From: Flavobacteriales bacterium
GTDB taxonomy: Bacteria > Bacteroidota > Bacteroidia > Flavobacteriales_F > PHOS-HE28
Assembly: GCA_041745875.1 (NCBI GenBank)
Contig: JBGTIB010000234.1
Coordinates: forward strand, 1-59,100
Length of the DNA: 59,100 nucleotides
Direction: 5' to 3'
Under the pieces are notes generated by a model. That model had not been told where the DNA came from and did no database searches. It saw nothing but the letters and a program-made list of their open reading frames with translations. How positions within the stretch are numbered: position 1 is the stretch's first letter; each line of letters opens with the position of its first letter. This document shows positions 43,077 through 49,003 of this stretch, piece after piece. The position numbers and the translations under genes are program-made.

Positions 43077-43158
43077 TACCCAGGGCGGGACTCGAACCCG
43101 CACGAATTGCTTCACTGGTGTTTGAGACCAGCGCGTCTACCGATTCCGCCACCTGGGT
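43077..43158 (-). tRNA. tRNA-Leu (anticodon CAA)
   Basis: ACCCAGG/CCTGGGT acceptor stem, CTGGT-CTCAAAC-ACCAG anticodon arm, long variable arm, GTTCGAGTC T loop; CCA not encoded. Confidence 0.96.
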
Positions 43159-43164
43159 AGGTGC

Positions 43165-43419
43165 TCACCTTCTTTTGCGGTTGCGAATTTCTTTCAATAA
43201 CTCCTTTCCCGCACCAGACTTCAAGAACTTTTCTCGTCTCCGAGCTTCCTTTCTATCTGGCAACACTTCAACGACCAAAACTTCGAAGGGCCTATAAGCA
43301 CGCGTTGTAGGTTCTTTGCCTCGCTGATGCTCATTGATCCTTCGTTCCACATTCAAGCTCAGTCCCACGTAGATGTACTCCTTCTCCAAGCTGGCTAAGG
43401 CATATACCGAGCAGTTCAT
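43165..43419 (-). CDS. Small GIY-YIG nuclease
   Basis: VYAL...YIYVG, RRINEH, T..YRPF, EARRREKFLKSG; lower GC than neighbours. Confidence 0.9.
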   Translation of the reverse strand: MNCSVYALASLEKEYIYVGLSLNVERRINEHQRGKEPTTRAYRPFEVLVVEVLPDRKEARRREKFLKSGAGKELLKEIRNRKRR

Positions 43420-43426
43420 TCCATTG

Positions 43427-43494
43427 CTGGTGTTTGTGACCAGCGCGCCTGCCTGCCGGCAGGCAGGTCTACCGATTCCGCCACCTGGGTAGGT
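43427..43494 (-). pseudogene. Duplicated 5' half of tRNA-Leu(CAA) interrupted by a 20-bp palindrome
   Basis: ACCTACCCAGGTGGCGGAATCGGTAGA[CCTGCCTGCCGGCAGGCAGG]CGCGCTGGTCACAAACACCAG; matches the intact tRNA plus 4 nt of leader except one base. Confidence 0.92.
43448..43467. repeat. Perfect 20-bp palindrome (REP-like)
   Basis: CCTGCCTGCC/GGCAGGCAGG. Confidence 0.9.
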
Positions 43495-43504
43495 ATTGGG
43501 GCGG

Positions 43505-43512
43505 CGAAGTTA
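43505..43512 (-). promoter_or_regulatory. Probable promoter of the half-tRNA / GIY-YIG / tRNA-Leu unit
   Basis: TAACTTCG, a variant of TAnnTTTG, just upstream of the half-tRNA. Confidence 0.55.
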
Positions 43513-43565
43513 AGCAGCAAGGGCTGCTCAGTGTTATCGAACGAAGCGAGCGGGCCTGTATCCCA

Positions 43566-46206: not shown

Positions 46207-46243
46207 GGCTTCAAATATAACGCAGCGCAATGCCCAATGCGCC

Positions 46244-46443
46244 CTACAACTTCCGCAACAGCCCTCGTATATCCACCTTCTCCCCCACGATCCGTTCCAC
46301 TTCGCTGATGGGCACACGCTCCTGCTTCATGCTGTCTCGCTCACGAATGGTGACGGCGTTGTCGACCAGCGTGTCGTGGTCCACGGTGATGCAGTAGGGC
46401 GTGCCGATGGCGTCCTGGCGGCGGTAGCGTTCGCCGATGCGTC
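46244..46443 (-). pseudogene. Orphan copy 1 of the glyS 3' end (64 codons + stop)
   Basis: [64 protein letters not shown], colinear with 47430-47624. Confidence 0.96.
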
Positions 46444-46445
46444 GG

Positions 46446-47363
46446 CTATTGCTTGATCCACTTGGCTGTCCCGTGGATCTGGCCGCTTTGGTCCACGATG
46501 GAACATTGGTAGACACCGGGTGGCAAGAGGGAAACATCCACGCCCCCATCCTCCTTTATCGCTTCTTCCATGACGATCCGGCCGGTGATGTCGTGCAGGC
46601 GTAGCGAGGTTTGCCCAAATTCTTCCAAGCTTCTGACCCAGAGTTGGTCGTGCCCAGGGTTGGGATATAGGACCGGCCCTGACGATCGCTGCGGACTTGT
46701 GTCCATCCCCAGGAACAGGTCGCAAGCCGATGGTCCACCTGTATCATAGATCGGAAATGTGTCGTCCTGGTAAGTGCGCAAAGTGGCGCCGAAATCTGAG
46801 ACGATGCATCCTCCTGGGGGGATGACCATCAATGGCGTCCCAATGCGTTCCACGACTGTCGTCATGCCCATCTCGGGATCACCGAACTGGTCGAGATGGA
46901 CCACGGAAACTGTACGCAGCATTACCCCGCTCAATGAAATATGGCCTGTATCGGTCACCTGGAGCATGCCCCATGTTCCTCCACACGTGCTCTCGTCAGC
47001 ACCGATCGGCCACCAACGGTCGCCAGGCACGGCGTTGAACCGGTAGAGGGTGTCCCATTCCCATTGGCCGCTAAATGAGGTCCAGGCGAATACGATGCTG
47101 TCCTCCACACTGGTGTGGAAGTAGGTATCCGTTTCCGTGATCGTGCCTGCAATGTGATCCAGCACATGTCCTGTAACATGGAACTGTTGTGCCGAACGGC
47201 CGTCAATGACCGTGTCTCCCACATAGACGTGGGTCTGGCAGCCATCCGTGAAGGCAGTTTGAATGTTGTAATTCCATACTGCGCCGGGCGGGGACCAAAG
47301 TTGTGCGGAAAGTCCAAGGCCCATGAAGCCTGTGGTCACAGCGAAGGTGATTTTCATGAACAT
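46446..47363 (-). CDS. T9SS type A sorting domain protein, function unknown
   Basis: Signal peptide [23 protein letters not shown]...[10 protein letters not shown]...KWIKQ. Confidence 0.88.
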
Positions 47364-47429
47364 GGGTTTGTCTGTTCTCCTAATGTGCAGGAAGAAGACA
47401 CCAGAAGGGACGCCTTCGCTGCTTAAGTC

Positions 47430-48971
47430 CTACAGCTTCCGCAACAACCCCCGCATATCCACCTTCTCCCCCACGATCCGCTCCACCTCACTGATGGGCA
47501 CACGATCCTGTTTCATACTGTCCCGTTCGCGGATGGTGACAGCGTTGTCTACCAGCGTCTCGTGGTCCACGGTGATGCAGTAGGGCGTGCCGATGGCGTC
47601 CTGGCGGCGGTAGCGCTTGCCGATGCTGTCCTTTTCGTCAAACTGGCAATTGTGGTCCAGCTTCAGGCGGTCCATGATCTCGCGGGCCTTCTCCGGCAGA
47701 CCATCCTTCTTGATCAACGGTAGCACAGCCACTTTCACTGGCGCCAGCGCGGCGGGGATGCGCAGCACCTCGCGTGTTTCACCGTTGGGAAGTTGCTCCA
47801 CATCATAGGCCGCGCTCAGGATGGCCAGGAACATGCGGTCCAAGCCGATCGAAGTCTCCACCACGTAAGGCACGTAACTCTCGTTGGCTTCCGGATCGAA
47901 GTACTGCAGCTTGCGACCGCTGTGTTTCTCGTGGCTGCTCAGGTCGAAGTCCGTGCGGCTGTGGATGCCTTCCAGCTCCTTGAAACCCATGGGGAATTGG
48001 AACTCGATGTCGCAGGCGGCGTTGGCGTAGTGGGCCAGCTTGATGTGGTCGTGGAAGCGGTAGTTCTCGGTGGGCAGGCCCAGGGCGCGGTGCCACTTCA
48101 TGCGGTACTCCTTCCAGTGGGCGTACCACTCCATCTCGGTGCCGGGCTTCACGAAGAACTGCATCTCCATCTGCTCGAACTCGCGCATGCGGAACACGAA
48201 CTGCCGCGCCACGATCTCGTTGCGGAAGGCCTTGCCGGTCTGCGCGATGCCGAAGGGGATCTTCATCCGTGCGCTCTTCTGCACGTTCAGGAAGTTCACG
48301 AAGATGCCCTGTGCCGTTTCGGGACGCAGGTAGATGGTGCTGCTCTCGCCGCTCACGCTGCCCAGCTCGGTGGCGAACATCAGGTTGAACTGCCGCACCT
48401 CGGTCCAGTTGGCCGTGCCGCTCACCGGGCACTTGATATCCTCGTCGATGATCAGCTGGCGCACGGCCTCCAGATCGTTCGCGTTGAGGGCCTCCTTCAT
48501 GCGTCCTTCCACCGCATCGATGCGGTCCTGGCTGCGCTTCACGTTGGGGTTGGTGGCGCGGAACTGCGCCTCGTCGAAAGCATCGCCGAACTTCTTCGAC
48601 GCCTTCTCGATCTCCTTGGCGATCTTCTGCTCGTACTTGCCGATGTGCTCTTCCAGCAGCACGTCCGCCCGATAGCGTTTCTTGCTATCCTTGTTGTCGA
48701 TCAGCGGATCGTTGAAGGCGTCCACGTGGCCGCTTGCCTTCCACACGGTGGGGTGCATGAAGATGGCTGCGTCGATGCCCACGATGTTCTCGTTGAGCTT
48801 CACCATGGCCTCCCACCAGTAACGGCGGATGTTGGCCTTCAGCTCGGAACCATATGGGCCGTAGTCGTACGTGGCGCTGAGGCCGTCGTAGATCTCGCTG
48901 CTGGGGAACACGAAGCCATACTCCTTGGCATGGCCGATCAGGGTCTTGAGGCGGTCTTCTTGATTGCTCAT
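47430..48971 (-). CDS. glyS: Glycine--tRNA ligase (alpha2 type)
   Basis: SEIYDGL..YDYGP, ASGHVDAF, LRPETAQGIF, FRNEI, REFEQME, anticodon-binding [14 protein letters not shown]. Confidence 0.98.
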   Translation of the reverse strand: MSNQEDRLKTLIGHAKEYGFVFPSSEIYDGLSATYDYGPYGSELKANIRRYWWEAMVKLNENIVGIDAAIFMHPTVWKASGHVDAFNDPLIDNKDSKKRYRADVLLEEHIGKYEQKIAKEIEKASKKFGDAFDEAQFRATNPNVKRSQDRIDAVEGRMKEALNANDLEAVRQLIIDEDIKCPVSGTANWTEVRQFNLMFATELGSVSGESSTIYLRPETAQGIFVNFLNVQKSARMKIPFGIAQTGKAFRNEIVARQFVFRMREFEQMEMQFFVKPGTEMEWYAHWKEYRMKWHRALGLPTENYRFHDHIKLAHYANAACDIEFQFPMGFKELEGIHSRTDFDLSSHEKHSGRKLQYFDPEANESYVPYVVETSIGLDRMFLAILSAAYDVEQLPNGETREVLRIPAALAPVKVAVLPLIKKDGLPEKAREIMDRLKLDHNCQFDEKDSIGKRYRRQDAIGTPYCITVDHETLVDNAVTIRERDSMKQDRVPISEVERIVGEKVDMRGLLRKL

Positions 48972-48976
48972 GCTTG

Positions 48977-49003
48977 GTCCGCCGAAGCTTTATGCGAAGG
49001 CGG
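48977..49003. repeat. REP-like imperfect palindrome in the glyS 5' leader
   Basis: GTCCGCCGAAGCTTTATGCGAAGGCGG: CCGCC..GC..GC..GGCGG arms with GAA/GAA internal mismatch. Confidence 0.6.

Follow-up and report, generated by a model that had tools for sequence, protein, structure and literature searches.

The window analyzed here is a stretch of 59,100 nucleotides (nt) from a Flavobacteriales bacterium (GenBank assembly GCA_041745875.1, contig JBGTIB010000234.1, here C234; genome of 4.66 Mb in 316 contigs, 59% G+C). Between glyS, the gene for the dimeric glycine--tRNA ligase, and the gene for tRNA-Leu(CAA) it carries an array in which displaced copies of the glyS end alternate with small cargo genes, followed by a partial copy of the tRNA and a small GIY-YIG nuclease gene. 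The array probably has two unrelated origins: an accretion hot spot at the end of glyS, which would have grown by recombination with diverged relatives, and a separate selfish element lodged at the tRNA gene. A preliminary description of the sequence had proposed integrase-free accretion by replacement of core-gene ends; the same footprint recurs elsewhere in this genome and in related genomes, which supports such accretion as a general process in the genus.

All genes and copies of the array lie on the minus strand (48971 down to 43076). glyS (47430-48971; Pfam HGTP_anticodon and tRNA-synt_2b; NCBIfam NF003211, E=1e-200) encodes 513 residues and has orthologs of 84-92% amino acid identity in the genus; the last 198 nt of the end in use (47429-47626) served as reference for the displaced copies. 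Cargo 1 (46446-47363), a 305-residue protein with a type IX secretion system (T9SS) C-terminal sorting domain (Pfam Por_Secre_tail), begins 66 nt past the glyS stop and terminates 5 nt ahead of displaced tail 2 (46243-46440). This tail, comprising the last 66 codons and stop of glyS (198 nt), is 90% identical to 47429-47626, and its reading frame is open through to the stop. There follow a DUF433 antitoxin-like gene (cargo 2a, 45970-46206; Pfam DUF433, E=5e-17), a few nt ahead of whose ATG stands TTATATTTG, which we take to be a Bacteroidota-type -7 box, and a DUF5615/Mut7-C/PIN-like toxin-like gene of 123 residues (cargo 2b, 45580-45951; Pfam DUF5615, E=4.5e-17), the only DUF5615 gene of the whole genome. 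Small, adjacent, co-oriented and separated by 19 nt, these genes form a predicted type II toxin-antitoxin pair. The toxin-like gene stops 17 nt ahead of displaced tail 3 (45472-45562; 91 nt, approximately the last 28 codons and TGA stop, 85-91% identical), which shares with tail 2 about 8 nt past the stop where the end in use differs. In a search of the 4.66-Mb genome the glyS copies were matched with BLAST E-values of 4e-71 to 9e-23. Cargo 3 (43566-45434), a second T9SS C-terminal-sorting-domain protein (622 residues; Pfam Por_Secre_tail), has homologs of 44-63% identity directly 3' of glyS in five relatives (G006, G014, G018, G042, and G073). The only Rfam family found over 42400-49300 was tRNA, and NCBIfam assigns no family name to the toxin-antitoxin pair or the nuclease. 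The three partial duplications, the cargo, the toxin-antitoxin pair, the small GIY-YIG gene and two types of palindrome were thus all found where the preliminary description had placed them.

Comparison of the glyS neighborhoods of 15 genomes of the same genus identifies the glyS-tRNA-Leu interval as an insertion hot spot, since the site is empty in five of them (G009, G015, G003, G008, and G005). In these, tRNA-Leu(CAA) lies at most 40 nt after glyS and is followed by comEB, an S41 peptidase gene and a superoxide dismutase gene, the same gene order as is seen outside the array in the window. Seven further genomes retain the synteny, with 0.95-3.9 kb of varied cargo inserted between the two genes, including homologs of the 622-residue T9SS protein, an M61 peptidase, DUF3667 and AbiEii; in the remaining three the glyS-tRNA synteny is gone. 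None of the 33 insert open reading frames (ORFs) of 10 relatives matched an integrase or transposase family. The first base of the tRNA-Leu -7 promoter box in relatives lies 3-6 nt past the glyS stop, so that upstream parts of the promoter fall inside the glyS end. From this we infer that insertion here would be viable only if the glyS end is duplicated, which would help the tails to persist.

Varied content between the same two conserved genes, without a mobility gene, is the hallmark of core-flanked hot spots and of the minimal mobile elements of Neisseria (PMC3787668), strain-variable cassettes of whole genes between two conserved genes, whose exchange is ascribed to homologous recombination in the flanks. 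The glyS interval shares with them the differing cassettes between the same conserved genes and the lack of mobility genes, but lies in a Bacteroidota-like lineage. To our knowledge, displaced ends of the flanking gene and stacking of events are not included in that concept.

Displaced gene ends are not confined to glyS. A whole-genome self-alignment for diverged core-gene ends, the check proposed in the preliminary description, yielded 33 pairs of local direct repeats, one copy of each pair being the end of an ORF of at least 150 residues; the second copy lies downstream in 22 of them. Sixteen tail copies, at 12 loci, have Pfam-named parents, so that the genome holds at least 12 such loci. 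The parents are glyS (two copies), a carboxyltransferase (three), pgk, an M24 aminopeptidase, PhyH, a glucosaminidase-LysM protein, a MORN protein, an aldo-keto reductase (AKR), an ABC-F protein, methylmalonyl-CoA mutase (MCM), an HD protein, Vut_1, and a truncated aldehyde dehydrogenase. Cargo at these loci comprises toxin-antitoxin systems, namely DUF4160/DUF2442 (twice), VapBC, UPF0175/DUF3368 and ParE (at the carboxyltransferase locus), as well as proteins with T9SS tails and unnamed ORFs. Repeats flank 6 of the 23 toxin genes of this genome, against 16 of 300 random intervals (p=0.002). On contig C309 of this genome (G000), a Y1_Tnp (IS200/RAYT-like) gene at 5849-6496 is located some 240 nt past the displaced Vut_1 tail.

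Across the genus, displaced glyS tails occur in 11 of 74 genomes, some with two or three copies, and pgk tails on the same contig in 3 of 77 (G000, G042, and G063); G018 and G044 have further pgk part-copies, on different contigs. Elsewhere in the genus, 8 of 11 DUF433/DUF5615 cassettes have flanking direct repeats of 40-200 nt, compared with 3 of 29 control glyS loci, two of these three being glyS tails themselves (Fisher p=3e-4; this and the other Fisher and Mann-Whitney figures given here overstate the case, as genomes of one genus are kin). Because the cassette-flanking repeats are unlike each other between loci, they are derived from the targets. Local repeats at 3 of 11 loci of T9SS-protein homologs are probably neighboring paralogs. 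G010 and G012 have a junction in common, within a 1.8-kb unit of tail, insert and long glyS copy that is 84% identical between them; on this junction G012 has stacked a further end replacement, and the 824-nt glyS copy of G010 is 98% identical to the gene in use. Such structures were probably inherited or passed on whole and built upon later. G012 and G074 also display end replacement without cargo, the older end lying approximately 30-75 nt after the gene in use and leading into the native promoter and tRNA. In G074 (locus L221, ~795-830) the glyS in use has a strongly diverged end, running 11 codons beyond the usual stop, and the displaced tail some 35 nt further on resembles the genus norm.

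The two copies of a tail differ as functional alleles would. Differences between copies, counted over all 16 tail copies, fall on codon positions 1, 2, and 3 in the numbers 69:43:153, a third-position share of 58% (p=4e-16 against one third); the share is 70% in the 13 copies without heavy decay, a subset picked after seeing the data, and is estimated at about 43% for one dead copy drifting. The 20 differences of tail 2 are 16 in third, four in first and none in second position, with 14 codon differences synonymous and five non-synonymous. This pattern, like the end replacement without cargo in G012 and G074, fits an origin of the DNA in diverged relatives, with a homologous crossover in the core gene. 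The left edges of the glyS tails lie at -197 and -84 in the window and at about -40, -60, -90, -147, -165, and -840 in relatives, and no shared sequence was found among the repeats of different loci, which involve a dozen unrelated target genes. Judged by these boundaries, insertion appears to be without site specificity.

The ancestral order would have been glyS, about 35 nt, tRNA-Leu(CAA) and comEB. DNA of diverged relatives would enter by recombination anchored in glyS, the incoming piece consisting of its own glyS end and compact cargo, which would be a secreted T9SS protein or a toxin-antitoxin pair. Because relatives do not share the sequence downstream of glyS, there would be no homology on the far side, and this would be closed by a non-homologous joint within the last 90-200 nt of the resident gene. 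glyS would be kept whole with the incoming end, while the resident end would be displaced downstream as a dead copy, and repeated rounds would yield the order glyS-cargo 1-tail 2-cargo 2-tail 3-cargo 3. Existing tails could be used as homology arms in later exchanges, and the same process could give rise to the displaced ends at many other core genes. An RNA (retro-copy) origin of the cassettes was rejected, given that the inserts include their own upstream -7 box and that the cassette type occurs in either orientation after glyS.

The simplest reading of the far junction is homology-facilitated illegitimate recombination (HFIR), in which incoming DNA is joined by homology at one end and without homology at the other (PMC3240628). 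HFIR needs no mobility gene and would explain both the core-gene anchor and the idiosyncratic far joint. It is, however, a laboratory finding in competent species, whereas here a similar course is deduced from footprints; the joint inside the anchor gene duplicates the resident end rather than deleting it, and successive events pile up in arrays and are found at many genes. Alternatively, a piece in which a tail is already present might insert by a Campbell-type or 'ends-in' event; the product would be identical, and the structure could then spread with no new illegitimate joint. An experimentally tested path by which recombination yields duplication is provided by the merodiploids of Streptococcus pneumoniae transformation, where partly repeated incoming DNA pairs at alternative places to give tandem duplications (PMC3784515). 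Those duplications span 100-900 kb and are bounded by insertion sequences, while here 40-840 nt of a gene end surround a small insert. In the open literature searched, subscription journals and supplements lying outside the search, displaced core-gene ends without an integrase are not described. As to the entry of DNA, the preliminary description had regarded comF and radA in the window as compatible with natural transformation; radA is indeed present, the comF candidate ORF has no Pfam match at 1e-5, and the two genes say nothing about transformability.

Several observations weigh against this account of the glyS array. Three older-looking tails (AKR, MCM, and ABC-F) have no third-position excess (35:25:33), and five repeat pairs without a Pfam-named parent (unk203, unk311, C37, C306, and C195) were excluded from the codon count. 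A donor search with two cargo proteins against 80 genomes of the genus found no close homolog, the best being 60% identical for the toxin and 42% for the T9SS protein of cargo 1, both at other loci. The glyS tails match sampled relatives at 86-87% at best, compared with 90% between themselves, and neither is clearly nearer to a relative. A tail of about 90 nt with nearly the same edge and differing downstream content occurs in G000, G042, G075, G086, G092, and G065, and may go back to one old event rather than several. The far joints are very tight, at least 10 cassettes having theirs 0-38 nt past the toxin stop. Such tightness is not expected of random illegitimate joining and calls for either later trimming or a more exact mechanism. 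Finally, ORFs were taken from a longest-ORF script rather than a gene finder, which limits the ORF calls.

Tight joints are among the features better accommodated by the strongest competing explanation, which we nevertheless consider unlikely: insertion in place with duplication of 40-250 nt of target, either by template switching (microhomology-mediated break-induced replication or fork stalling and template switching) or at widely staggered nicks. Tails would then be identical at birth, and their synonymous-looking differences would reflect later overwriting of the gene in use by alleles of relatives. The inserts are minimal, running from promoter to stop codon, one toxin-antitoxin family occurs at many loci, each with its own target-derived repeat, and the tRNA element described below leaves a similar footprint, all of which this explanation would cover. 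It would likewise accommodate the long glyS copy of G010 at 98% identity, although the junction common to G010 and G012, whose copies are 84% alike, leaves room for gene conversion as the source of that figure. The end replacements without a cassette in G012 and G074 are hard to derive in this way, the third-position share exceeds the drift estimate, and overwriting right up to the stop codon would require a donor with the same cassette.

Improbable, too, is that the array represents the remnants of site-specific integrative elements inserted at the glyS 3' end and the tRNA, with integrases lost or acting in trans. Direct repeats of a target-gene end around foreign DNA, as found here, are the classic mark of integrase islands, and tRNA genes and the 3' ends of housekeeping genes are common att sites. 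In models of tandem accretion by pairs of integrative and conjugative elements (ICEs) and cis-mobilizable elements (CIMEs), the replacement end is supplied by attP. The glyS array resembles ICE/CIME arrays in its serial target-end direct repeats, which separate the cargo, and in having the newest block next to the gene. It differs from them in its variable crossovers, its blocks of 0.03-2 kb, its dozen unrelated targets and the lack of a detectable integrase. Tyrosine recombinases (PF00589) have three matches in the genome (C248, C247, and C52), the one on C52 lying beside a tRNA cluster, and none on the tail-bearing contigs, including the 11 outside the window; the window array has no Pfam match to an integrase, serine recombinases not having been searched for. 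The insert ORFs of the 10 relatives likewise gave no integrase match, at least 12 target genes carry repeats without common sequence, left edges at glyS alone lie anywhere between roughly -40 and -840 nt, and inserts go down to 30-700 nt.

The preliminary description had further suggested that the GIY-YIG nuclease, by cutting, or REP-like (repetitive extragenic palindromic) palindromes, by breaking, might set off the glyS end replacements; in our estimation this is very improbable. Nuclease, palindromes and tails do all lie inside 6 kb, and of the 10 genomes in the genus that carry the nuclease at this site, 3 have tails too. A degenerate CCTGCC palindrome stands at the exact left edge of the glyS tail of G042, and in G012 a CCTGCC palindrome occupies that same position, inside the tail. 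However, tails are associated neither with GIY-YIG genes nor with palindromes: across 74 genomes, 7 of the 11 tail-bearing ones have no nuclease homolog (2x2 table 4/12/7/51; odds ratio 2.4, Fisher p=0.24), and palindrome counts are alike in genomes with and without tails (median 2 vs 2, p=0.2). GIY-YIG domains occur three times in this genome, once in a tRNA-linked gene, and the contigs of its other tail loci have none. Around its 16 tail copies, none of the 33 CATG-dense clusters found genome-wide lies within 300 nt, and CATG-rich repeats also occur 3' of tRNA-Leu at the empty sites of G003, G005, and G008; CATG-rich palindromes were accordingly rejected as junction makers, and the CATG-type repeats are not tied to the insertions. 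CCTGCC palindromes lie near a repeat pair at three places, and at the two alignable pairs (C107 and the tRNA pair) the palindrome is a clean insertion of 20-21 nt in one copy only, so that it probably arrived after the duplication.

A mixed-population artefact in one contig of a metagenome-assembled genome is hardly credible: although the assembly has 316 contigs and copies 85-90% alike could stem from co-occurring strains, contigs of run X1 made with another assembler span all cargo/tail junctions with no differences (an assembly check and not an independent occurrence, X1 being possibly the source sample), and the same architecture is present in 10 other genomes of the genus, several of them in 1-10 contigs.

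The nuclease gene, one palindrome family and the partial tRNA copy appear to form a separate and undescribed element. The part-copy of the tRNA-Leu 5' region lies at 43418-43494 on the minus strand, or to 43520 with the native promoter and leader (TAACTTCGCCGCCCC...), as delimited by alignment. It covers tRNA positions 1-24, with 28 identical nt in the alignment; a 20-nt palindrome follows, and then the anticodon arm with one change. The flank upstream of it matches the conserved -7 box and leader of tRNA-Leu in 12 relatives. The palindrome, CCTGCCTGCCGGCAGGCAGG (43448-43467), stands directly after the GGTAGA of the tRNA fragment and about 38 nt ahead of the ATG of the nuclease gene, a position that it also has in five genus-level relatives. 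The nuclease gene (43165-43419, minus strand; Pfam PF01541, E=7.5e-16, 58.6 bits against a cut-off of 22.6) has its ATG at the end of the tRNA homology and its stop 6 nt ahead of the intact tRNA-Leu(CAA) (43076-43158, minus strand; ARAGORN; Rfam tRNA, 59.3 bits), which is therefore preceded by the end of this ORF and not by its native promoter. With the native promoter ahead of the part-copy, the ORF lies between promoter and tRNA. It is most likely read from the tRNA promoter, because the 28 nt before its ATG hold no promoter of their own.

The 84-residue product consists of the catalytic domain only (residues 3-68), and the nearest solved structure is that of a UPF0213 protein (1ZG2, E=2e-4). 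Genes 82-87% identical occupy the same site in G006, G042, and G048, and of 81 genomes in the genus at least 10 have a GIY-YIG gene at tRNA-Leu(CAA), the query used finding none in the rest. One contig each of runs X1 and X2 joins 43168 to 43440, omitting 271 nt with the ORF and retaining the palindrome-bearing tRNA fragment; the support is weak, with sides of 30-34 nt, and the skip may reflect either an allele without the ORF in these samples or the sequence of a relative.

The arrangement extends well beyond this genus. A tRNA lies within 400 nt at 37 of 66 loci of GIY-YIG homologs across phyla, on the same strand in all 37 (about 1% would be expected by chance), and at 14 of the 37 a copy of at least 19 nt of that tRNA is found across the gene from it. 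In the genus itself, 16 of 19 loci lie no more than 94 nt from a tRNA on the same strand (tRNA-Leu(CAA) in 13), which is downstream of the gene in eight and upstream in eight, and a palindrome lies within 500 nt at 13 of the 19. The identical palindrome after GGTAGA occurs in three phyla, in loci from records titled Flavobacteriales, Giovannonibacteria, Saccharibacteria and Chitinophaga. The host tRNA is a tRNA-Asn in Giovannonibacteria, a tRNA-His-like gene with a long unexplained insert in Saccharibacteria, and a tRNA-Arg in Chitinophaga, where the palindrome stands in the D- and T-loops of part-copies; the GIY-YIG proteins of these distant loci are 43-51% identical to that of the window. 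The preliminary description had seen the array growing inward from both anchors, the glyS 3' end and the tRNA 5' end; the recurrence of the tRNA part-copy as fixed layout of a cross-phylum element speaks against this.

A metagenome scan with a 26-nt motif gave at least 121 loci, of which 80 were examined and 68 had room downstream. Among the matches listed, a GIY-YIG ORF starts within 70 nt of the motif at 44 of these 68, the tRNA then usually following about 250-300 nt past the motif; at some 20 other loci the motif leads directly to the tRNA, with no ORF, and at 27 of 54 the 24 nt ahead of the palindrome equal the 5' end of the next tRNA with at most one mismatch. Units may also be repeated. 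In G066 (L233, reverse strand, about 800 nt upstream of the GIY-YIG ORF) seven tandem units of 93 nt each comprise the first 24 nt of tRNA-Leu, the palindrome and 50 nt, and are followed by the intact tRNA, the GIY-YIG ORF, and a palindrome variant with the last 21 nt of the tRNA. At L069 (~1380-1500) the 3' end of a second GIY-YIG gene precedes a tRNA fragment with palindrome, an arrangement of units in tandem, and the metagenome loci L275, L279, and L295 each display two consecutive units of motif and ORF. At L082 (1740-1990) the tRNA-His-like gene after the GIY-YIG ORF has its long insert directly after the anticodon loop, and the upstream copy switches to the ORF at that same point. No Rfam match at this insert attains its gathering score, and intron families were found in none of L082, L076, L107, L233, and L066. 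The 20-nt palindrome is also present without mismatch at 40 viral contig loci of IMG/VR (L367-L406), in more than one copy at several of these.

Palindrome numbers follow the presence of the gene. The family occupies 35 genomic sites, compared with 2-6 for four control palindromes, and a control with the palindrome read backwards gave 0-1 per genome. The median is 15 palindromes in 17 genomes with the GIY-YIG gene and 1 in 64 genomes without it (Mann-Whitney p=7e-7, not corrected for kinship), and at least five copies are present in 14 of the former and eight of the latter. This covariation suggests that the nuclease acts on palindrome hairpins. The element, laid out as native tRNA promoter, 5' tRNA copy with the palindrome after GGTAGA, ORF and intact tRNA, may then be a selfish one that relies on tRNA promoters it has taken over, with a small Slx1/UPF0213-like nuclease that acts on hairpins, akin to the action of RAYT on REPs. 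Some data fit this less well: 29 of the 66 homolog loci have no nearby tRNA, four genomes without the gene (G036, G051, G057, and G089) hold 11-16 palindromes, and three genomes with it hold only one or two. Site-specific homing, moreover, is doubtful, because the 84-residue protein lacks a domain for DNA binding.

I-TevI and the Seg proteins possess a separate DNA-binding domain and a long recognition site. In presence and absence at the same site among close relatives the gene does behave as a homing endonuclease gene would, and its lodging among tRNA genes recalls T4 SegB, a free-standing GIY-YIG homing endonuclease in a phage tRNA gene cluster (PMC2330249). Unlike SegB, the protein described here is a bare catalytic domain of UPF0213/Slx1 type, is encoded on chromosomes of many phyla, and has a duplicated tRNA part and an invariant palindrome at its flanks. 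A fusion to a tRNA methyltransferase is noted for the UPF0213/Slx1-like group in PMC1564403. The closest parallel to the palindromes is offered by the REP/REPIN-RAYT systems (PMC3337134), in which dispersed short palindromes include copies that flank a single-copy transposase gene. Here, too, copies of a dispersed palindrome family flank a single nuclease gene, and their number follows its presence; the enzyme, however, is of the GIY-YIG and not the Y1/HUH type, which places the element outside that family, the gene is linked to a tRNA, and the palindrome is fixed in tRNA fragments (after GGTAGA, or in the T-loop). This genome has three Y1_Tnp genes of its own, on C309, C133 (beside tandem repeats of about 107 nt), and C68. 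In the open literature searched, outside which subscription journals and supplements lay, the palindrome sequence occurs in no paper, and GIY-YIG proteins are linked neither to RAYT/REPIN nor to part-tRNA repeats.

It is tempting to speculate further, with due reserve, that the GIY-YIG gene, palindrome and tRNA 5' part define an undescribed family of mobile elements ranging from Bacteroidota to the candidate phyla radiation, and that displaced gene ends act as portable recombination sites. If the former were true, a structure-specific nuclease would live off tRNA promoters and spread its own hairpins, as a GIY-YIG counterpart of REP/RAYT; if the latter, integron-like cassette arrays at housekeeping-gene ends would be built by RecA alone, with toxin-antitoxin pairs and secreted proteins as their main content. 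Most accessory genes of bacterial hot spots have no visible means of movement. Stacked allele-like core-gene ends would be legible scars, indicating that ordinary recombination with diverged relatives can sustain the gain of genes, and they offer a signature that can be searched for in any genome and by which events can be counted and dated. Toxin-antitoxin cassettes are the commonest passengers, which bears on how such modules spread without transposases. The nuclease element, in turn, ties together small UPF0213/Slx1-like GIY-YIG proteins, REP-like palindromes and part-duplicated tRNA genes, three subjects usually considered separately, and provides a direct way to test the role of this widespread small GIY-YIG family.

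Three other parts of the window deserve mention. At the suf genes, where the preliminary description had seen a footprint related to that at glyS, an ORF does lie between sufB and sufC, but only chance-level matches of 19-22 nt were detected; this ORF (1740-2267) is lipoprotein-like, with a signal-peptide-like start. An AbiEii toxin gene (51445-52074), of which a small upstream ORF (51191-51490) may be the partner, lies 2.5 kb beyond glyS, and no flanking repeats were found around it. CATG-type inverted repeats bracket the array, with a perfect palindrome of 20+20 nt upstream of glyS (49087-49133) and REP-like, CATG-rich inverted repeats downstream of the tRNA (42967-43065). The simple repeats downstream of tRNA-Leu were compared at loci L039-L041, L031, L037, L038, and L042: CATG-rich repeats are found 3' of the tRNA in the window, G003, G005, and G008, and GATC-rich repeats take their place in G009, G013, G014, and G012.

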